Source: an uncultured Clostridium sp. | GTDB taxonomy: Bacteria > Bacillota > Clostridia > Oscillospirales > Ruminococcaceae | Assembly (NCBI GenBank): GCA_964621265.1 | Contig: CAZULQ010000008.1 | Coordinates: 49 to 64,048, forward strand | DNA: 64,000 bases | Direction of reading: 5' to 3' | Shown: in pieces, positions 31,064 through 63,998 of the stretch | How the letters are laid out: each line of letters begins with the position of its first letter | Numbering within the stretch: position 1 is the stretch's first letter | The notes under the pieces: model-generated | Seen by the model: only the letters and a program-made list of their open reading frames with translations | Database searches by the model: none | Told to the model about the DNA's origin: nothing | Position numbers and translations under genes: made by a program

Positions 31064-31939
31064 ATGAAAAAAATAAATGCAATTCTTTCTGCGGCGGCAG
31101 TTCTTCTGGTTTCTGCAGGAAGCTGTATAAGCGTAAGCGGCCTTGAATACTGTGAAACGCTTACATACATTGTTTCCGAAAACGAGGCTATTATTACAGG
31201 CTACTGCGGAAATCCCGAAGTTATAAACCTGCCATCTGAAATCGAAAACAAGCCTGTAACTGAAATCAGGGAAAATGCATTCTACAGATGCAGTTCACTT
31301 ACTGAAATAACTCTTCCCGAGAGCGTAAGCGAAATAAGTCACCACGCTTTTTTTGAATGCACTTCTCTTGAAACAGTTAAAATAAACGGGGAAGTTGACT
31401 GCTTTTCCGAGGGCGTATTCTATGGCTGTGAAAGCCTCAGAAGTATTGACGTACGCAACACCGCTGAAATTGATGATTACGCATTTTTCGGATGCCTGAG
31501 CTTAGAAAAATTCCGAACGCCGCAGGGCGTTACAGAAATCGGAGAATACGCATTTTACAACTGCCTTTCACTCTCAGAAATCTCCTTTGGCAACAAGCTT
31601 CACAAAATCGGAAGCTACGCATTTTTCAACTGTCCTGAGCTCCCGAAAATAAGCTTTCCCGAAAATCTCAATTCAATCGGTCAGTACGCCGCAGGATTTT
31701 CAGATAATGGTCTCAACAAAAGCTTTGAAATTGTCGGGATGCCTGATACCATAGCTGAGCATTACGCAAAAAGTAATGGCATAGACTTCAGACAGCGCAT
31801 TACCTCACAAAGAAGCACCATTCTGACAGGCGAAAACATTCTCAGCACTCTTATATGGCTTATCTTCGCCGTTCTTTATGGCATAACTATATTTTACGTT
31901 CTTCCCGCAGTAAAAAAGCGACGTCGTGCTTTCAGATAG
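31064..31939 (+). CDS. BspA-type leucine-rich-repeat (LRR_5) surface protein with C-terminal membrane anchor
   Basis: Signal peptide; repeated I..xAFxxCxSLxxI.P units; C-terminal TM followed by KKRRR. Confidence 0.88.
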   Translation: MKKINAILSAAAVLLVSAGSCISVSGLEYCETLTYIVSENEAIITGYCGNPEVINLPSEIENKPVTEIRENAFYRCSSLTEITLPESVSEISHHAFFECTSLETVKINGEVDCFSEGVFYGCESLRSIDVRNTAEIDDYAFFGCLSLEKFRTPQGVTEIGEYAFYNCLSLSEISFGNKLHKIGSYAFFNCPELPKISFPENLNSIGQYAAGFSDNGLNKSFEIVGMPDTIAEHYAKSNGIDFRQRITSQRSTILTGENILSTLIWLIFAVLYGITIFYVLPAVKKRRRAFR

Positions 31940-31950
31940 AATCAGCACAA

Positions 31951-31987
31951 AAAACGGGACTGCCTGTTATAATGGCAGTCCCGTTTT
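31951..31987. terminator. Bidirectional terminator between LRR gene and dockerin-protein gene
   Basis: AAAACGGGACTGCC...GGCAGTCCCGTTTT 14-bp inverted repeat. Confidence 0.85.
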
Positions 31988-32023: not shown

Positions 32024-33859
32024 TCAAACCATTTTTGAAAGTGTCATGTAATCGAATACATTAACAACACCATCACTATTTACGTCTGCTGATTCAGCTG
32101 TGAATTCAAAGCCTTCAACAGTAACGCCTACCATATACTTCTTGAGCGCTTCAGCATCGTCTGTTGAAACCATGCCATCGTTGTTGTAGTCATATGCTGT
32201 ATTTGTTTCTTCTACAACTGCGTCAGGTGTATATGTAATTTCGATTGTTTCGAGGTAAAGAGGAACTGTTGAGCCCCACCAGTAACCGATTTCAATGTTT
32301 CCGCCTGTGATACCATTGCAGATATCAGTGTCAGCGAAGTTAATTGTGTAAACTGTATTTGTACCGATGTATTCGTTGATGTCCTTCTGATACCAGTTGC
32401 CGTTTGAAACCATGCCGATACCCATGATGAGTGTATCGATTGTGCCAACTGTTGAGCGGAGGTTAATCTTGATGTTTTCAACTGTGCCCTTTGAGCAGAT
32501 TTCGTCGAGGTTGAATTTGTAAAGCTTGCTTGCTTCGTCTGAATAGTCAAGCTTTGCATTGATTGAGTATACTTCTGTGATTGTGTCTGAATCTGAAGCT
32601 GTTGTTGTTTCTGTTGTTGTAGCTACTGTGCTTGCCTTTGATGATGAAGATGCGATTGTTGCTGTTGTAGTTGTAGTAGTTGTTGTAGCTTCTGTTGTTG
32701 CAGGAGTTGTAGATGTAGTAGTAGTTGTTGTAGCTTCTGTTGTTACTGTAGTAGTTGTTGTTGTAGTTGTTGTAACTTCTGTTGTAGTTGTAGCTGCTTC
32801 GTCAGCGATATATGTAACTGTAATTGTGTTAAGAATAATTGTATTTGATGTGCCGTACCAGTAACCGATTTCAACATTGCCGTTTTCAAGACCCATGCAT
32901 GCGCTTGTGTCGCCAAAGCTTGCTGTGTATGACTTAACGCCTACTGTTGTGTTAACGTCATTCTGATACCAGTTGCCATTAACCACGCCTGACATAGATA
33001 ACGAAATTGAACCGAGAGCTGATGCTGAACGGAAGTTTGCATCGAGACCGATGATTGTGCCCTTAGCTGCGATTTCGTCGATGTTGAATGAGTATGACTT
33101 GCTGTCGTTTGATGTGTAGTCGAGAGTCTGTCTGATTGTGAATGTTTCTGTAACTACTTCGCCTTCAGGAAGTACAACTGTTGTTGTAGTTGTTGCTTCT
33201 GTTTCAGGAGCAGTTGTTGTAGTTGTTGTTGTAGTTGTAGTAGTTGTTGTAACCTGTGTTGTTGTAGTTGTTGTTACAGCTGATGTCTTTGTCCATACTG
33301 CTGCAAATACGATTTTATCTGATGAAAGGATTGCAGGAACTTCGAATGCTGAACCAGCTGTGTATGTAACGCCGTCATACTTCCAGCCGCTGAATGTGTA
33401 ACCGTCATATGTGAACTGGTTTTCAGGAAGAGTAATTGTTGTGCCGTATGTAGCGTCAACGTAGAAGTTTGCGCTGCCTGCTGAAGTTTTGCCGCCCTTG
33501 CCTGTGAAAGTGATTGTATATGTGCTTGGTTCCCAGTTAGCTACGAATGTGAGGTCGTATGAAGGCATTGTGTACTGAGCACCTGTTCTGACTGTTTCGC
33601 CTGTCTTTGGAACATACCATGACTTGAGGTCGTAGCCGAGTCTTGAGAATCTTGATGAATCTGCCGCATCGAATGTTGTGTTGATAATCTTTTCGAAGTT
33701 TACTTCAGATGCACCAACGATGCCGTCAACATCGCCTGCTGTGTAAGTAAGTGTGCAGTATGTAACTGCGTGTACTGTCAGACTTGTAAACATTGAAACT
33801 ACCATGAGGATTGAAGAAATAACTGCGATTGCTCTCTTAAAATTAACTGTTCTTTTCAT
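32024..33859 (-). CDS. Secreted non-catalytic dockerin protein: 2 InlB-B (Listeria-Bacteroides) repeats, Thr linkers, 2 CBM79-like modules, dockerin
   Basis: Signal peptide MKRTVNFKRAIAV...VHA; GYDLKSWY...FVANW and GYTFSGW...AAVW repeats; two ~118-aa modules ending GYW(Y/W)G; DYNNDG...DVNSDG duplicated Ca-loops; start refined to ATG 33859 (AAGGAG SD). Confidence 0.85.
   Translation of the reverse strand: MKRTVNFKRAIAVISSILMVVSMFTSLTVHAVTYCTLTYTAGDVDGIVGASEVNFEKIINTTFDAADSSRFSRLGYDLKSWYVPKTGETVRTGAQYTMPSYDLTFVANWEPSTYTITFTGKGGKTSAGSANFYVDATYGTTITLPENQFTYDGYTFSGWKYDGVTYTAGSAFEVPAILSSDKIVFAAVWTKTSAVTTTTTTQVTTTTTTTTTTTTTAPETEATTTTTVVLPEGEVVTETFTIRQTLDYTSNDSKSYSFNIDEIAAKGTIIGLDANFRSASALGSISLSMSGVVNGNWYQNDVNTTVGVKSYTASFGDTSACMGLENGNVEIGYWYGTSNTIILNTITVTYIADEAATTTTEVTTTTTTTTTVTTEATTTTTTSTTPATTEATTTTTTTTATIASSSSKASTVATTTETTTASDSDTITEVYSINAKLDYSDEASKLYKFNLDEICSKGTVENIKINLRSTVGTIDTLIMGIGMVSNGNWYQKDINEYIGTNTVYTINFADTDICNGITGGNIEIGYWWGSTVPLYLETIEITYTPDAVVEETNTAYDYNNDGMVSTDDAEALKKYMVGVTVEGFEFTAESADVNSDGVVNVFDYMTLSKMV
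32590..33280 (-). repeat. Low-complexity Thr-rich linker triplet repeats (32590-32800 and 33170-33280)
   Basis: Runs of GTT/GTA on the plus strand = ACA/ACT Thr codons in frame. Confidence 0.85.
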
Positions 33860-33910
33860 AATAATAACACTCCTTAACTTATTCGCCTGACAGGTTATTA
33901 TCAAGTATAT

Positions 33911-33951
33911 AAAACAAAAACGGCGTCTTTTTTGTAGCAAAAAAGACGCCG
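33911..33951 (-). terminator. Intrinsic terminator in the riboswitch expression platform
   Basis: CGGCGTCTTTTTTG-loop-CAAAAAAGACGCCG stem followed by TTTTTGTTTT on the minus strand, between aptamer and SD. Confidence 0.88.
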
Positions 33952-33992
33952 CTAATATAGCTTAATAATAACATTTGTAATTAATACAAGTG

Positions 33993-34082
33993 TCAGCAAC
34001 TGGCTGTCGTACCGCTTATTGTTCAAGCGGGTTAGACCCTTAGCTTTGCGTCCTTACCTTTCAGTAAGTTTGCCCATTATTC
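33993..34082 (-). ncRNA. c-di-GMP-I (GEMM) riboswitch
   Basis: Minus strand GGGCAAACTTACT-GAAA-GGTAAGGACGCAAAGCTAAGGGTCTAA-CCCGCTT...AAGCGG-TACGACAGCCAGTTGC matches the GEMM consensus (GAAA tetraloop, GACGCAAAG, GGxCTAA, CAGCCAGTTGC). Confidence 0.93.
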
Positions 34083-34197
34083 AATTTACTTTCTTTACAT
34101 CTGAACTTAAAATTTATTTCAACTTGAAGCTTTGTGAGTTTTAATTTTTGTTTTCTCTTAAGCTTTGTTTTTAAATCTTGTGTTCTTCTGTGTCTAT

Positions 34198-34226
34198 ATA
34201 ATACCACTAAAACGGTTTCGTGTCAA
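34198..34226 (-). promoter_or_regulatory. SigA promoter for riboswitch leader/dockerin gene
   Basis: TTGACA-17 nt-TATTAT with TGn extension. Confidence 0.75.
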
Positions 34227-34551: not shown

Positions 34552-34884
34552 ATGTCTGTAAAAATAACAGAGGATGAAAAAAGGATTATTGCGCTGCTCT
34601 CTGGCGAGATTGACCATCATAGTGCAAAGGGGCTCAGGGCAGAAATTGATTTTTCTTTGCGTGAACGTCATCCACAGGAATTAATTCTCGACTTTTCGGA
34701 AGTAACCTTTATGGATAGTTCCGGAATCGGTCTTGTTATGGGACGCTGTAAGCTTATGAACGAGCTCGGGGGAACTGTCACCGTAAAAAATCCCCCTAAC
34801 TATATAAGAAAGGTCATGCGCCTTTCGGGTATAGACCGCATTGCGACTATTTCAGGCAGTAAGGAAGGAGCATGTCACAAATGA
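34552..34884 (+). CDS. spoIIAA: Anti-sigma-F factor antagonist SpoIIAA
   Basis: LSGEIDHHSA, VTFMDSSGIGLVMGR (phospho-Ser motif). Confidence 0.95.
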   Translation: MSVKITEDEKRIIALLSGEIDHHSAKGLRAEIDFSLRERHPQELILDFSEVTFMDSSGIGLVMGRCKLMNELGGTVTVKNPPNYIRKVMRLSGIDRIATISGSKEGACHK

Positions 34885-35318
34885 AAACCATAAACGAAAT
34901 GAAAATCAGCTTTCTCAGCAAATCAGAAAATGAAGGCTTTGCGAGAACGGCAGTTTCTGCATTCTTTGCTCTGTGCGACCCGTCGGTCGAGGATATAGCA
35001 GATATAAGGACGGCAGTTTCCGAAGCTGTCACAAACTGTATAGTTCACGCTTATCGTGGTACGACAGGAATTATTGAAATAACTGCAAAAATACTTGAAG
35101 GCAACGAATTTTACATAAGAATAAAGGATAAGGGCTGTGGCATACCTGATATAGAAAAAGCGATGGAGCCGCTTTATACCTCTGCACCGCTCGAAGAACG
35201 TGCAGGGCTCGGATTTGCTGTCATGGAATCATTTACAGACGTTTTAACCGTTAAAAGCGAACCTGACAAGGGAACAGTAATTACAATGAGAAAAAAGCCC
35301 GGTGAACACAATGAATAA
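34881..35318 (+). CDS. spoIIAB: Anti-sigma-F factor/kinase SpoIIAB
   Basis: SENEGFAR, TAVSEAVTNCIVHAY, DKGCGI, AMEPLYT, ERAGLGF; start refined to ATG 34881. Confidence 0.95.
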   Translation: MKTINEMKISFLSKSENEGFARTAVSAFFALCDPSVEDIADIRTAVSEAVTNCIVHAYRGTTGIIEITAKILEGNEFYIRIKDKGCGIPDIEKAMEPLYTSAPLEERAGLGFAVMESFTDVLTVKSEPDKGTVITMRKKPGEHNE

Positions 35319-35961
35319 ACCATCAGCAGAGGAACATCTGGGACTGGTACATCTTTGTGCTAATCGTTTTCGTGGACGAGGAATCGAATATGACGACCTG
35401 TATTCTGCCGGCTGTATCGGCTTACTAAAAGCCGCTGACGCATTTGACTGCGAAAGGGGCGTGAAATTTTCAACCTATGCAGTACCCGTCATACTCGGTG
35501 AAATAAAGCGGCTTTTCCGTGACGGAGGAGCTATAAAGGTAAGCAGAAGCTTAAAGGAGCTTTCACTGCGAACTGTCCGCAAGCGCGAAGACCTTTCCAA
35601 GACGCTCGGGCGTGAGCCGACTATCAGCGAACTGAGTCACGCCATGAACGAAAATGAGTGCGACATAGCAGAAGCGCTTGCCGTAAGCCTTCCGCCCGTC
35701 TCGCTCACAGACAGCTCCGATGAAAATGGTAAGGAGCTTGATATAGCAGTTCCCTCACCCGATACAGAAATAGGCGATACAATTGCGCTCAGACAGGTAC
35801 TTTCTATAATGGAAGAAAAGGACCGTTCCCTTATAATCTTAAGATACTATAAAGGGAAAACCCAGACAGTCGTTGCAAAAGAGCTCGGTATGTCACAGGT
35901 TCAGGTTTCAAGGCGTGAGAAAAAACTGCTCGGATTTATGAGGGAACAGCTTTTAAAGTAA
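35311..35961 (+). CDS. sigF: Forespore sigma factor F (short N-terminus)
   Basis: RGIEYDDLYSAGCIGLLKA, FSTYAVPVILGEIKRLFRD, IKVSRSLKE, TQTVVAKELGMSQVQVSR; third gene of spoIIA operon. Confidence 0.9.
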   Translation: MNKPSAEEHLGLVHLCANRFRGRGIEYDDLYSAGCIGLLKAADAFDCERGVKFSTYAVPVILGEIKRLFRDGGAIKVSRSLKELSLRTVRKREDLSKTLGREPTISELSHAMNENECDIAEALAVSLPPVSLTDSSDENGKELDIAVPSPDTEIGDTIALRQVLSIMEEKDRSLIILRYYKGKTQTVVAKELGMSQVQVSRREKKLLGFMREQLLK

Positions 35962-58579: not shown

Positions 58580-60400
58580 TTAACCCAATTTAGTTTCGCC
58601 GATAAGTGCACGTCTTAAAAGAACGCAGTCCATTGAGTTTATAAGACCATCGCCTGTGCAGTCAGCATTGAGCATAGCTGTTTTACCAAGAGGATTTTCC
58701 TCTGAATCTGCAATAAACATCATAAGAGCTACTATGTCAGCAACATCAACTAGACCATCTGCATTCACGTCGCCTCTGAGTGTTACAGAAGAGCCCGCAA
58801 CAGGTATTGCATAAACACCGTAAATTGTAGCTGACTGAGCAGTTGCACTTACAAACATATTCTTCATATCAGCAAGAGCAACTTCATTAGCTTCAAGTGT
58901 TTCAGTAATGTTGTTATAGTCAAAATATGCAAGGAAGCTGTCCTCTTCATTTGCTGTAACAGTATACCAGCCGCCCTGGAAAATAACTGTCGGTGCAACG
59001 TCTGAGTCATGAACAACTACAAGCTTGTAGTTTTCATTCACATAATCCTTCCAGCCGCTTATAGTGAAATTTTTCCACGCGGCAATTTCCTTACCTTCGT
59101 CAGCACGGAAAAGTTCAACCCAGTCACTGCCGATGTTAACATCATCCCATGAGAATACAGGCTTTACATATTCCGCATAATCAGGAAGCTTATATCCTGT
59201 GATGCCGAGTGTGTCCATCATAGCCGCAACAACAGGCTTTGAGTTAGGATACCATGTATTTGTTGCTCTGTAAACATAGCCGTGTGCTTCACCTGTGCCG
59301 TTATATTCAGCATTGTTATCCCAGAGTACGCAAGGAATGCCTGCATCCTTGGCTCTTGAGAGATAATACTTAGCCCATGCAACTCTTGAGTCAGTATTTT
59401 CAAAGTCAGAAGCACTGAATTCGCCGATTACAATCGGAGCACCCTTACTGCTTGAAATACCCTTTAAGCTGTTGAAAAGACTGTCAAGGTGATATTCATA
59501 GCTTTCGCCCCAGCCGCTCGAACCAGGGAATTCATGATTAGCCTTGTCTGATGTATCCATTGTGAAGAAATAAGGCGCATATGCATGAACTGAAAGCGCT
59601 ACGTTTCCTGCACCGCTTGGGATTTCAATTGCGTTTATAGCCTCAGCTGATGAAGAAGCACAGTAGCCAGGGAGCATGAGCATACGCTCTGCGTTCTGAG
59701 CTGAACCCTGTCCTCTTACAGTTTTTATAAATTCAGCATTGAGGTCATTGATATACTTTCTTGAATAGCTGTCACCTGCGCCCCATTCAACAGAGCTTCC
59801 GAGACCTGTCTGACGAGGCTCGTTCATACCCTCAAAGATAAGGTGCTGGTCATAGTCAGCAAATGTTTCTGCAACCTGTGCCCAGATGTCAGTAAGCTTG
59901 TTCTGAGCGTCTGCATATGTAGCATCTGTAAACTCAGCAACATTTACCCATTCCTCATGATGAACATTGATAATAATGAACATTCCGAGTTCATAAGCAT
60001 AGTCAACGTTTTCCTTTACGTAATCGAGCCATTTCTGGTCGATTTCATAGAAATCGTTTGCTTCATCGTAAGTAAGGTGCTGATACCATGTTATTGGTAT
60101 TCTTACTGTATTGAAACCGCCTGCCTGAACAGTTTCAAAAAGCTCCTTGGTTGGTACCGGGTTGCCCCAGCTTGTAACAAATTTTTCCGGCGCCGCATTA
60201 ACCTTGAGGTTAGCGTTTGTAGCGTCGAATGTGTTACCGAGATTCCAGCCGATTTTCATCTGAGAAGTAATTTCAGCAGATGAAAGTCCTGAAAGCGTTG
60301 CCGCATCGACTGTTTCTTCGACATTTCCTGATACACCTATCATACACATAAGACAGGCAGCCGAAGTCAGGACTGACATGATTTTCTTTTTGATTGACAT
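58580..60400 (-). CDS. GH5 (subfamily 4-like) endoglucanase with an extra ~125-aa module and C-terminal dockerin
   Basis: Signal peptide; GWNLGNT, WGNP, RIPITW, INVHHE, FEGMNEP (acid/base), SVHAY, IGEF (nucleophile), LWDN; GDVNADG...DCTGDG dockerin. Confidence 0.93.
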   Translation of the reverse strand: MSIKKKIMSVLTSAACLMCMIGVSGNVEETVDAATLSGLSSAEITSQMKIGWNLGNTFDATNANLKVNAAPEKFVTSWGNPVPTKELFETVQAGGFNTVRIPITWYQHLTYDEANDFYEIDQKWLDYVKENVDYAYELGMFIIINVHHEEWVNVAEFTDATYADAQNKLTDIWAQVAETFADYDQHLIFEGMNEPRQTGLGSSVEWGAGDSYSRKYINDLNAEFIKTVRGQGSAQNAERMLMLPGYCASSSAEAINAIEIPSGAGNVALSVHAYAPYFFTMDTSDKANHEFPGSSGWGESYEYHLDSLFNSLKGISSSKGAPIVIGEFSASDFENTDSRVAWAKYYLSRAKDAGIPCVLWDNNAEYNGTGEAHGYVYRATNTWYPNSKPVVAAMMDTLGITGYKLPDYAEYVKPVFSWDDVNIGSDWVELFRADEGKEIAAWKNFTISGWKDYVNENYKLVVVHDSDVAPTVIFQGGWYTVTANEEDSFLAYFDYNNITETLEANEVALADMKNMFVSATAQSATIYGVYAIPVAGSSVTLRGDVNADGLVDVADIVALMMFIADSEENPLGKTAMLNADCTGDGLINSMDCVLLRRALIGETKLG

Positions 60401-60548
60401 TAGATTCCCCTCCTAAAATCTTGCTGGCAGAATAATTCTGCCTGTTATCTTCCGCATGCGTGCCTTATATCTCATAGCACGCAGACGTCTTTCTGATATA
60501 TCTCTCCGGAATTCCAGGCAAGATGAACCCACAGAGCTATATATACAC

Positions 60549-60577
60549 ATTTTACAATAAATAATCACAGATGTCAA
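60549..60577 (-). promoter_or_regulatory. SigA promoter for GH5 gene
   Basis: TTGACA-17 nt-TAAAAT about 150 nt upstream of the ATG. Confidence 0.75.
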
Positions 60578-61295: not shown

Positions 61296-63998
61296 TTACT
61301 TTCCAAGCTGTGAGTAATTAATAATCATAGCAACATAGTTCATAATCAGAACACTGTCAGATGAGTCAATAACTCCGTTTTTAGCACAGTCTGAGTTAGC
61401 TAATGATACGTCGGAAAGTGAATTTGTTGTCGAATTGAGAAGATACATATTAATTGCTACAACGTCTGCAACGTCAACTGACTTGTCATCATTAACATCA
61501 CCGTACTTAGTAGCAGTTACATTAGGAACTGTTGCACCCTGAGATGATGTTGTTGTAGAAGTTGTTGTCTTGATTGCAATTGTTGTGGACGGTGTTGTAG
61601 TTGTTGCAATTCCCTGATTATCAAGTGAATATTCACATGTCACTGACTCAATTGTAATCGGGCTGTTACCCCACCAGTAACCAAACTGGAATATACCTGT
61701 ATCATATTCGATTTCATCCTGAATTGATGACACATCAAATACATACTTACCCGAGTTTACAGATGAAGCTGTGAGATCAAGCCAGTTGTCAGCATTGCTT
61801 GTTACTGAAATACCGCCACCGTATGAGATAGAATCTGATGTATTAAGCTTAACAATAATCTTTTCAGCCTTTGCGCCACTTGGAACAAGCTCTGAAAGTG
61901 AAATCTTATACATCTTATTTGTTTCGCTTGAACTGTCAAGCTGAGTATTTACATTCACAACTGTTGAGCCTTCTGAAGAAGGTGCTGTTGTTGTTCTTGT
62001 TGTAGTAGTTGTTCTGATTGTAGTTGAAGTAGTTGTTGTAACCTTTGGAGCTGTAGTGATTGTAGTAACAGATGCACCTTCCTTTGAGTAAATGCAGGTT
62101 ACAGATTCAATTGTAATAGGACTGTTGCCCCACCAGTAGCCAAACTGGAATATACCTGTACCGTATTCAATTTCATCCTGGATTGATGATACATCAAATA
62201 CATACTTGCCTGAATTTACAGATGAAGCTGTAAGGTCAAGCCAGTTGTCAGCATTGCTTGTTACAGAAATACCGCCGCCGTATGAGATTGATTCTGATGT
62301 ATTGAGCTTAACTATAATCTGTTCAGCCTTTGCACCGCTTGGCACAAGCTCTGAAAGTGAAATCTGATACATCTTGTTGTTTTCGCTTGAACTGTCAAGC
62401 TGAGTATTTACTGTCACAACTGTTGAGCCTTCTGAAGAAGGTGCTGTTGTTGTTCTTGTTGTAGTAGTTGTTCCACCCTGGTTATTTGATGTTGAAACAG
62501 TAGTAGTCTTTATTGTTGTAGTAGTAGTTGTTGTGACCTTTGGAGTTGTAGTAGTGGTAGTTGGCTGTGTTGAACCGCCGTCTACGCCAGGAACAGAAGA
62601 AGCAATTGACTGTCCTGAACCGTATTTAAGGTAAAGACCTGCAAGTGCGCCAACAAATGCTGCGTTATAGTCTGTTGCAACTTCAGTATATTCATACTTT
62701 TCAACGTCATCAACATAAGAGTCATTTGAGTCAGGACCGCCAACAAGCGCACCTACGAGAACGTGCTTGAATGGAACGCCCTGATTTTGTGACGGGAAGT
62801 TTGAGTAGCCTGAAGCCGCTCTGTGGTGAGGTTTTGTAACAGAATTGCTGTCATAGCCTACCATGTAGCAGTAACCTGCACTGTTATTACCAAAGAGATA
62901 TTCCATCTGTCCCTTTGCCCATGCTGAATAAGTTGAACTGTTCTTATACTTGTCATAAACAAGACCTACAAGCTGAGTTGCTGTATTGTATCTTGCAGAG
63001 CCCCAGTTATTACGGCATGCATAACCGCCTGATGTGTTGAAGCTGTTCTTGTTTGTATCAACGTTTGCTGATACTCTGTCCCACTCATTTGCGTAGATTG
63101 CATTAACTGCAGGCCATACGCTGTCCCAGCAGAGCGGATAGTCAGATGTATAGGCATAGTTTGACTGAGAAATCCAGTTTGCGCAGTCTGACTTGTATGA
63201 AGATGTGTTTGTAGCCTTGTAAAGTAAGATTGAAGCAAGAGCTAAGTCATCAAGATAGCTTGTACCTGTATAGTATGACTGTGACTGATGATTTGCCTTG
63301 TTATTTGACTTTGCAAATGCGTAAAGAGCCTTGGCATATGTAAGGTCCTCAGAGTTTCCGAAGTTAATGTAGTTCATTGCAAGTGCCGCAGCTGTTTCAG
63401 CAACAACGTCTGTACAAGGATTGCTTGATGTTGCAAAGTAAGCAGGTCTTGCAAGAGTCTGGCTTTCAGGTGAGCACCACTGTGCATGGTCAGTATCACC
63501 GTCACCAACCTGATAACAGAACGCCTGAACGCTTGAACCGCTCATTACAGTACATCTCTTGAAGTAGTCACAGAAATAATCTGTGATAGTCTGGAGGTGA
63601 CCCGCCTGTCCTGTCTTTGTATAGGCATCCTTGAATTCGTAGTAGCCCCAGCCGAGCATTGTAGCCGAGTAAGCACCAGGAAGACCAAACTTAACGTGGT
63701 CACCTGCGTCGTGGAAGCCACCGCTTAAATCAAGTGTACCGTATGGAGTTGAAACAGCTGAGTCATAAGTATGACAGTCATCTCTCCAGTTGAGCTGTGA
63801 TGTTTCTCCAACCTGTCCGCCGCACATGTTTGCGTCGTAAAGATAGAGTGAATACTGAAGTGCCTTAGCATAGTTTACGCTTGAAGCAGCTTCAATAACC
63901 TGTGTTTCTACGGCTGTCATAGGAACTAACGCCGTAGCGGCAACTACAATACCTGTTACCGCAGCTTTGATTCTGTTCAAAAGCTTTTTGCCTTTCAT
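61296..63998 (-). CDS. GH9 endoglucanase with two tandem CBM79-like modules and C-terminal dockerin
   Basis: Signal peptide; DLSGGFHDAGDHVKF, PHHRAAS, LVGALVGGP, YVDD...EVATDYNA; Thr linkers; duplicated module ending FQFGYWWG; YGDVNDD...DCAKNG dockerin. Confidence 0.94.
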   Translation of the reverse strand: MKGKKLLNRIKAAVTGIVVAATALVPMTAVETQVIEAASSVNYAKALQYSLYLYDANMCGGQVGETSQLNWRDDCHTYDSAVSTPYGTLDLSGGFHDAGDHVKFGLPGAYSATMLGWGYYEFKDAYTKTGQAGHLQTITDYFCDYFKRCTVMSGSSVQAFCYQVGDGDTDHAQWCSPESQTLARPAYFATSSNPCTDVVAETAAALAMNYINFGNSEDLTYAKALYAFAKSNNKANHQSQSYYTGTSYLDDLALASILLYKATNTSSYKSDCANWISQSNYAYTSDYPLCWDSVWPAVNAIYANEWDRVSANVDTNKNSFNTSGGYACRNNWGSARYNTATQLVGLVYDKYKNSSTYSAWAKGQMEYLFGNNSAGYCYMVGYDSNSVTKPHHRAASGYSNFPSQNQGVPFKHVLVGALVGGPDSNDSYVDDVEKYEYTEVATDYNAAFVGALAGLYLKYGSGQSIASSVPGVDGGSTQPTTTTTTPKVTTTTTTTIKTTTVSTSNNQGGTTTTTRTTTAPSSEGSTVVTVNTQLDSSSENNKMYQISLSELVPSGAKAEQIIVKLNTSESISYGGGISVTSNADNWLDLTASSVNSGKYVFDVSSIQDEIEYGTGIFQFGYWWGNSPITIESVTCIYSKEGASVTTITTAPKVTTTTSTTIRTTTTTRTTTAPSSEGSTVVNVNTQLDSSSETNKMYKISLSELVPSGAKAEKIIVKLNTSDSISYGGGISVTSNADNWLDLTASSVNSGKYVFDVSSIQDEIEYDTGIFQFGYWWGNSPITIESVTCEYSLDNQGIATTTTPSTTIAIKTTTSTTTSSQGATVPNVTATKYGDVNDDKSVDVADVVAINMYLLNSTTNSLSDVSLANSDCAKNGVIDSSDSVLIMNYVAMIINYSQLGK
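61636..62473 (-). repeat. Intragenic direct duplication (about 380 bp unit, 459 bp period) encoding the two CBM-like modules
   Basis: 61636-62014 and 62095-62473 align nearly base for base, with mostly synonymous differences. Confidence 0.92.

Follow-up and report, generated by a model that had tools for sequence, protein, structure and literature searches.

The window analysed here is a stretch of 64,000 nucleotides from an uncultured Clostridium sp. (assembly GCA_964621265.1, contig CAZULQ010000008.1, positions 49 to 64,048). On its minus strand, a cyclic di-GMP class I (c-di-GMP-I, or GEMM-I) riboswitch stands ahead of a gene for a 611-residue secreted dockerin protein, called P0001 below. 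An original prediction, made from the sequence of the window, had described a complete unit of promoter, A-rich spacer, aptamer, intrinsic terminator, Shine-Dalgarno (SD) sequence and open reading frame (ORF), and all of these parts were recovered within a few bases of the predicted positions. Promoter, aptamer, terminator, SD sequence and ORF lie on one strand, which is the position of a cis-regulatory 5′-untranslated region (5′-UTR) with an expression platform. The order of promoter, aptamer, terminator and SD sequence recurs in 17 orthologous leaders, which come from other species within the genus.

The riboswitch leader and the protein that it precedes

The aptamer was identified by covariance-model search at 34084–33992 (−), with a score of 73.4 bits against Rfam RF01051 (gathering threshold 35, E = 1.6 × 10−12), in agreement with the GEMM aptamer predicted at 33993–34082. 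The match is full length (model positions 1–87 of 87), and the same result was obtained in a search of the whole genome. The GEMM family is built of two adjacent hairpins joined by AAA, with a GNRA tetraloop and a receptor-like internal loop (Weinberg 2007, PMC1950547). Alignment of the window aptamer showed a GAAA tetraloop on hairpin 1, the AAA linker and a GACGCAAAGC junction, with CUAA and UACGA within the receptor-like hairpin 2; these features are conserved in the 17 orthologous leaders. The element is a genuine GEMM-I aptamer, and is predicted to sense c-di-GMP.

Transcription of the leader would start from a sigma-A type promoter at 34198–34226 (−), where a SigA promoter had been predicted. 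A consensus scan gave TTGACA-17-TATTAT with a TG extension (11/12 matches), and 36 of 37 related GEMM-I leaders carry TTGACA-17-TATnnT with TG upstream. From this extended −10 promoter the leader is about 330 nt long. Between promoter and aptamer lies the predicted A-rich spacer (34085–34190 (−), about 54% A), which sets the −10 box 114 nt from the aptamer, the longest such distance among its relatives (range 28–114 nt). An A-rich, G-poor spacer of variable length also occurs in 36 related leaders, ahead of both classes of gene discussed below.

Downstream of the aptamer, the intrinsic terminator occupies 33909–33953 (−), with a 16-bp stem at 33953–33919, a 3-nt loop and a U tract reaching to about 33909; it had been placed at 33911–33951. 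A terminator was found in all 17 orthologous leaders. In their alignment 96.2% of cells were paired, and in 5 of 10 pairs both partners had changed in a compensatory manner. The covariation score was not reached in any of 500 shuffles, and 3′ partners slid out of register paired in only 38–57% of cases. A small covarying hairpin, seen in the 17-leader alignment and in folds, lies in the interval between aptamer and terminator (33971–33993 (−)).

The ORF begins at ATG 33859, 10 nt after the SD sequence AAGGAG (33875–33870 (−)), which is kept in nearly all 17 leaders, and ends at the stop codon 32024–32026, as predicted for a 611-residue product. An alternative start at TTG 33940 was rejected because of its place within the terminator; ATG 33859, by contrast, is preceded by an SD sequence and opens a normal signal peptide. 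At the 3′ end of the gene, a terminator with an 11-bp stem, a 9-nt loop and a U tract was recognized by inspection (31949–31984 (−)); the terminator scan, with its loop limit of 8 nt, had passed over it. Because of this terminator, the unit is taken to be monocistronic.

P0001 (32024–33859 (−), 611 residues plus stop) is laid out as a secreted protein, and the coordinates of its domains below are all on the minus strand. Residues 1–31 (33767–33859) form a signal peptide by inspection, with a basic N-terminus, a hydrophobic core, and VHA followed by V. In an AlphaFold model, for which 37 members of the family were used, residues 7–25 are helical and a low-confidence stretch follows. Two Flg_new repeats (Listeria-Bacteroides, InlB B-repeat-like) occupy residues 33–192 (33284–33763), with 31.8 bits against PF09479 (cut-off 27), consistent with the two InlB-B repeats of the original prediction. 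The model is confident over residues 32–192, with a predicted local distance difference test (pLDDT) score of about 90, and there is a weak profile match to the InlB B-repeat 2y5p.

Two further modules resemble DUF5620 and the carbohydrate-binding module (CBM) family CBM79. Module 1 (residues 232–352, 32804–33166, pLDDT about 92) carries the motifs NWYQ and GYWYG; module 2 (residues 427–545, 32225–32581), with NWYQ and GYWWG, is 44% identical to it, and the domain at 425–545 is modelled with moderate confidence. Disordered Thr-rich linkers span residues 194–231 and 355–424. Pfam alone flagged no DUF5620 in P0001, and family profiles and folds were used. The family profile matched 4d3l/4v1k/4v1l ("carbohydrate binding module") with E = 4.6 × 10−6. 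For the whole model, 4d3l was also ranked first by Foldseek (E = 2 × 10−7, target template-modelling score 0.66, 127 columns, about 13% identity), and NWY and GYWWG of the modules align with GYW and GVWW of 4d3l. The other Foldseek matches were generic jelly-roll or CBM22-type folds. Profile and fold thus both bear out the two CBM-like modules that had been proposed.

The C-terminus is a type I dockerin (residues 556–611, 32027–32194), with 37.1 bits against PF00404 over residues 556–610 (cut-off 22.9) and a pLDDT of about 85. Both calcium loops are intact, DYNNDGMVSTDD and DVNSDGVVNVFD, helices were modelled at 566–576, 588–591 and 601–610, and the family profile matched many solved dockerins. 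The dockerin should plug into a cohesin. It stands apart in sequence, with 38–43% identity to its closest counterpart elsewhere in the genome, where the median for best matches is 60% (99 dockerin ORFs). No catalytic domain was found in P0001 by Pfam or in the AlphaFold model, in line with the prediction of a dockerin protein without an enzyme. Its 73 homologues, most with DUF5620, Flg_new and dockerin, are all uncharacterised.

A glycoside hydrolase family 9 (GH9) endoglucanase is encoded elsewhere in the window (61296–63998 (−)), with the GH9 domain at residues 43–452, DUF5620/CBM79-like modules at about 527–642 and 680–793, and a dockerin at 832–889. Module 2 of P0001 is 26–29% identical to these two modules (E = 1 × 10−8). 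Since the GH9 copies lie between catalytic domain and dockerin, the usual position of a CBM, P0001 is best read as a binding-only subunit of the cellulosome, with sugar binding predicted from this likeness.

Neighbouring features were also recorded. A BspA-type protein of leucine-rich repeats (LRR_5, 146 bits; 31064–31939 (+)) is convergent with the 3′ end of the P0001 gene, and the hairpin at 31949–31984 is common to both. Divergent from the P0001 promoter lies a trio of STAS anti-anti-sigma factor, anti-sigma kinase and sigma-70-family factor (spoIIAA/spoIIAB/sigF-like, 34552–35961 (+)), which is probably unrelated to the unit. Elsewhere in the window, the leader of a GH5-dockerin cellulase gene (leader 60401–60560 (−), gene 58580–60400) folds stably, with a minimum free energy (MFE) of −46.9 kcal/mol and a z-score of −2.8 that 2 of 200 shuffles equalled, and has no Rfam match at E ≤ 1; an S-adenosylmethionine (SAM, S-box) riboswitch (2752–2855 (−), 77.1 bits) lies upstream of a 398-residue ORF (1461–2657 (−)).

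GEMM-I targets across the genus

The source genome (2.2 Mb, 99.6% complete) contains only three GEMM-I aptamers, and no c-di-GMP-II aptamer was found in a whole-genome search. Besides the window aptamer, these are a tandem pair of 64.5 and 70 bits (G000, contig C2:164866–165040 (+); locus L002:1417–1591), and the gene behind the pair is a second target that had been missing from the original prediction. It encodes P0002, a secreted protein of 250 residues with a dockerin of 35.6 bits. Pfam gave no cohesin match in P0002 itself, the cohesin being too divergent. The family profile of the N-terminal domain, however, matched the cohesins 10uv (E = 1.4 × 10−7) and 4uyp (E = 1.5 × 10−4). In a structural model with a pLDDT of 85, all 50 of the 50 best Foldseek matches were cohesins, led by Coh5 of Ruminococcus flavefaciens ScaB (E = 8.8 × 10−10). 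By profile and modelled fold, P0002 is a monovalent adaptor scaffoldin with one cohesin and one dockerin. Its dockerin belongs to the populous NLYDAIxIAK group, which is carried mostly by small proteins.

Dockerins are abundant in this genome, with 91 Pfam matches (90 over the cut-off) and 99 ORFs detected by our own hidden Markov model (HMM), so that dockerin genes make up only a few percent of all genes. The HMM was built from the Pfam-confirmed dockerins of this genome and may miss divergent dockerins in distant genera. It replaced a regular expression that had overlooked the Pfam-confirmed dockerin of P0002.

The linkage is not confined to this genome. GEMM-I was found in 21 of 22 genomes of the genus, usually as two units each, and the DNA downstream of all 40 units was taken and the first ORF classified. 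Seventeen units precede a P0001-like protein and 20 precede a protein with one to three cohesins and a dockerin. Of the remaining three, one precedes another dockerin protein, one a large ORF that is truncated at the edge of its contig, and the last lacks a same-strand ORF. A dockerin was detected downstream in 34 of the 40 units, and 4 of the 6 exceptions are cut by contig ends. In this genus GEMM-I precedes almost only the P0001-type protein and the cohesin-dockerin adaptor. The proposed link between a GEMM aptamer and dockerin genes is thus recurrent and conserved across the genus, not a one-off. One aptamer (L066; G020:C16:2985–3076 (+), 64.4 bits) has no ORF of at least 100 residues on its own strand in about 2.8 kb downstream, where a 734-residue ORF runs convergently; this aptamer is perhaps an orphan, or has some other target.

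Presence and absence follow the same pattern. The one complete genome without GEMM-I (G021) has no full-length match to P0001, with partial Flg_new and weak C-terminal matches only, and its match to P0002 is partial and covers the cohesin region only. Another genome (G001) has a single unit, before the adaptor, and no P0001 orthologue. These patterns indicate that the switch and its genes travel together.

Beyond the genus the link becomes rare. In a survey of the family (151 genomes, 135 genera), GEMM-I was found in 42 genomes. Outside the genus, the downstream ORF could be scored for 59 units, of which 5 precede dockerin proteins, a count that the HMM may have kept too low. A genome of a second genus (G109) holds the same pair, namely a 250-residue protein with Pfam cohesin and dockerin, and a P0001 homologue. 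There the tandem GEMM-I precedes the P0001 homologue instead of the adaptor, and in other species the leaders of P0002 orthologues carry a single aptamer. In a genome of another genus (G120; L082 and L086, C13:65116–73110), two adjacent genes, each with its own GEMM-I, encode proteins of about 770–800 residues with a transglutaminase-like core and a dockerin; the fifth dockerin unit is in G169. Behind the other units lie genes for pilins and for large surface proteins, and phage-like genes. With only 5 of 59 units outside the genus, the GEMM-dockerin link is lineage-specific.

Members of the adaptor orthologue cluster are labelled as Porcipelethomonas sp. or as metagenome-assembled genomes (MAGs) of Oscillospiraceae bacterium, and the genus is probably Porcipelethomonas, Oscillospiraceae. 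The closest public locus of P0001 is in a MAG from Hadza gut, and a search of genome contigs gave one related locus.

Polarity of the switch and alternative readings

The geometry of the leader was used to deduce how ligand binding might act on termination. The 5′ arm of the terminator starts 39 nt downstream of the aptamer and does not overlap it, so a folded aptamer cannot block the terminator by overlap. In the alignment of the 17 leaders, no GC-rich antiterminator partner for the arm was found within the AU-rich spacer. The 3′ strand of the aptamer, on the other hand, is complementary to the base of the terminator: the strand GUUGCUGA (33993–34000 (−)), which comprises the last 3 nt of the aptamer final stem and its 3′ tail, can pair with UUAGCGGC (33948–33955 (−)), which overlaps the first 6 nt of the terminator 5′ arm. 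The pairing of 34000–33993 with 33955–33948 would give 8 bp, including 3 G-U pairs, with −9.6 kcal/mol, and the proposed antiterminator helix would enclose the small hairpin. An earlier candidate, in which the 5′ arm pairs with the GGACGC core, came from MFE folds of nascent transcripts from 8 leaders, that of P0001 included. It was dropped because its shuffle control was weak and arms such as CCGGCAUCUU lose the pairing.

The pairing was examined by a specific test, in which the 17 nt from the AGCC anchor were paired with the 8 nt upstream of the arm plus its first 8 nt. Over the 17 leaders the mean z-score was −2.38, with 11 of 17 below −1.64, and cognate pairs beat non-cognate pairs (permutation p = 0.015). 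As the hypothesis had been framed on these same leaders, an identical test was run on 12 independent adaptor-scaffoldin leaders with terminators. Here the mean z-score was −1.93; 11 of the 12 values were negative, and 6 fell below −1.64.

Given the lack of overlap, the lack of a partner in the spacer, and the complementarity of the aptamer 3′ strand to the terminator base, we consider with fair confidence that the expression platform is an OFF switch. At low c-di-GMP, the GUUGCUGA strand would pair with UUAGCGGC, and the helix enclosing the small hairpin would act as an antiterminator, so that the gene is transcribed. With c-di-GMP bound, the aptamer would hold the GUUGCUGA strand, the terminator would form, and transcription would stop before the ORF. 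High c-di-GMP would then probably repress P0001, contrary to the common expectation that c-di-GMP promotes adhesion. A different layout was seen in the short P0002-type leaders of 250-residue adaptors (L060–L065, L068 and L002:1592–1665), which have no U-tract terminator and carry a conserved SD-sequestering hairpin, UUGCCCUU ... AAGGGCUAA. Control in these leaders is probably translational.

For the joint reading, that a c-di-GMP riboswitch acts as an OFF switch on transcription termination of P0001, and that P0001 is a dockerin-borne CBM-like subunit, we estimate a probability of about 0.65. Several results count against it. The window's own antiterminator is weak when taken alone (z = −1.0, p = 0.15, 3 G-U in 8 bp), and a broad test of the 5′ arm against the whole aptamer gave a mean z-score of only −1.2, with −0.7 for the P0001 leader, against the shuffle control. 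The specific pairing hypothesis was framed after the alignment had been seen, and then replicated on a separate set; the leaders are related rather than independent, so that the support looks stronger in the z-scores than it is. Among characterised c-di-GMP riboswitches with adhesin targets, several are ON switches, and an OFF switch runs counter to this analogy. As for the protein, modules 1 and 2 score 16.1 and 21.9 bits, respectively, against DUF5620 (PF18522), under the cut-off of 25; in orthologues at about 40–50% identity, DUF5620 scores 37–48 bits.

With ON polarity, c-di-GMP binding would give read-through, and the binding subunit would be made in the sessile, high c-di-GMP state. This is the behaviour of V. 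cholerae Vc1-gbpA, of B. thuringiensis Bc2-cap, and of the C. difficile type II riboswitches before CD2831 and pilA1. The weak antiterminator of the window would fit as well, and a design of this kind has been described for many GEMM terminators (Weinberg et al. 2007, PMC1950547). That design, however, needs a terminator 5′ arm that overlaps the aptamer 3′ side, whereas here the two are set apart and complementary instead. A three-state design would need the spacer to pair with the GC-rich arm, and the AU-rich spacer has no such sequence. We regard ON polarity as unlikely. It is much less probable still that the aptamer is promiscuous or senses another cyclic dinucleotide, such as 3′3′-cyclic GMP-AMP (cGAMP) in the manner of GEMM-Ib. 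The telling position is the base before GCAAAC, which we take to be the ligand contact G20 of Vc2, and an A there marks the cGAMP-responsive GEMM-Ib variants. Of the two tandem aptamers on C2, the second has A, as does one orthologue (L055), whereas G is present in the window aptamer and in 35 of 37 first aptamers; GGDEF and EAL proteins are encoded in the genome. Nothing specific speaks for the aptamer being a decaying relic with no regulatory role, beyond there being only three copies in the genome. The high full-length score, the joint conservation of aptamer, promoter, terminator and SD sequence in 17 leaders with compensatory changes, and the joint absence of GEMM-I and its target genes from G021 make this the least credible of the alternatives.

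The remaining alternative concerns the protein. P0001 could be an adhesin for other cells, host or mucus, or a structural spacer, with a dockerin that serves only for surface anchoring and a DUF5620 that does not bind carbohydrate. DUF5620 has no tested function and the identity to 4d3l is low, Flg_new repeats occur in many surface proteins unrelated to plant fibre, and among the dockerins of the genome that of P0001 is an outlier. Against this, 4d3l was the best match by both profile and fold, two aromatic motifs align, and the module occurs twice in the GH9 enzyme at the usual CBM position. An adhesin or spacer seems improbable.

If P0001 is a binding-only subunit, the most likely effect of c-di-GMP is to alter those components of the cellulosome that serve targeting and are non-catalytic. 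The source genome encodes at least 7 GGDEF and at least 5 EAL proteins as well as flagellin genes, which makes a motile/sessile frame plausible; no flagellar gene lies behind GEMM-I in this genome. With an OFF switch, high c-di-GMP would withdraw P0001, and perhaps the adaptor, and low c-di-GMP would allow their production. One may speculate that the binding subunit serves substrate capture before firm attachment. The outlier dockerin would fit a dedicated cohesin partner, for which the co-regulated adaptor is the obvious candidate. Only tentatively, we propose a physical partnership of P0001 with the adaptor scaffoldin in a c-di-GMP-switchable targeting arm, with the P0001 dockerin in the adaptor cohesin and the adaptor dockerin in the main scaffold. 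If so, one messenger acting through two riboswitches would add or withdraw a whole substrate-capture module, deployed while searching at low c-di-GMP and dropped once attached at high c-di-GMP.

To our knowledge, the regulation of ruminococcal-type cellulosomes is largely unknown. The arrangement described here would link the motile/attached decision to the make-up of the cellulosome in uncultured gut fibre degraders, with control placed on structural and targeting parts rather than on enzymes. It also marks DUF5620 as a module worth characterising, and offers promoter, switch and terminator as a compact natural part for the control of designer cellulosomes.

Comparison with known systems

Among characterised c-di-GMP-I riboswitches are V. 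cholerae Vc2, Vc1 before gbpA, and C. difficile Cd1 before flgB. The window element resembles them in its full-length model match, GAAA tetraloop, AAA linker, 5′-UTR position and terminator control, and Cd1 is likewise a terminator-type OFF switch. It differs in its targets, which are parts of the cellulosome: a CBM-like protein that carries a dockerin, and an adaptor that combines cohesin and dockerin. Known GEMM targets include carbohydrate-binding proteins, chitin- and cellulose-binding domains and transglutaminase-like proteins, and the text of that survey mentions no dockerin or cohesin (Weinberg et al. 2007, PMC1950547). In keeping with the original prediction, which knew of no characterised example, no paper was found in which c-di-GMP, by way of a riboswitch or otherwise, is connected with dockerin or cohesin proteins. 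A 2025 cellulosome review raises "riboswitch-linked dockerins" only as an unrealised design concept; they appear to be natural here. A 2026 paper on divergent ruminococcal cohesins makes no mention of regulation.

For the protein, the closest relative is the CBM of R. flavefaciens Cel9A (4d3l/4v1k/4v1l), the best match by profile and fold, with aligned aromatic motifs and a module likewise found with a GH9 and dockerin enzyme. The CBM79 label of 4d3l is probably right. PDB entry 4d3l is titled a novel CBM from the R. flavefaciens GH9 Cel9A, and CBM79 is a family from an R. flavefaciens GH9 (PMC9026390). The arrangement of the GH9 enzyme in the window (61296–63998) mirrors that of Cel9A. P0001 differs in the low identity of about 13%, in modules that score under the DUF5620 cut-off, and in having no enzyme domain. 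P0002, in turn, resembles the ScaC-type monovalent adaptor scaffoldins of R. flavefaciens, in that cohesin and dockerin are combined in a small secreted protein and the fold matches include the cohesins of ScaB, ScaC and ScaE. It differs in a cohesin too divergent for Pfam, and no adaptor scaffoldin is described under riboswitch or c-di-GMP control in the literature found.

The nearest RNA parallel within cellulosome biology, and the only riboswitch proposed for such genes in the literature found, is the xyl-doc 5′-UTR of C. papyrosolvens, a leader in which transcription of the cellulosomal cluster ends prematurely and which its authors called a putative riboswitch (PMC5815224). That assignment is speculative, with no known ligand or RNA family, whereas the element here belongs to a defined and characterised class. 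The RNA itself is an ordinary member of that class, and it is the regulon that is undescribed in the literature found. The described controls of clostridial cellulosomes are protein-based, and comprise sigma/anti-sigma pairs and two-component systems. The sigma-I/RsgI system of C. thermocellum, for instance, senses extracellular polysaccharide and acts on transcription initiation. Both systems would adjust the composition of the cellulosome in response to a signal; in the system described here, however, the regulator would be an RNA, the signal an intracellular second messenger, and the step controlled transcription elongation.

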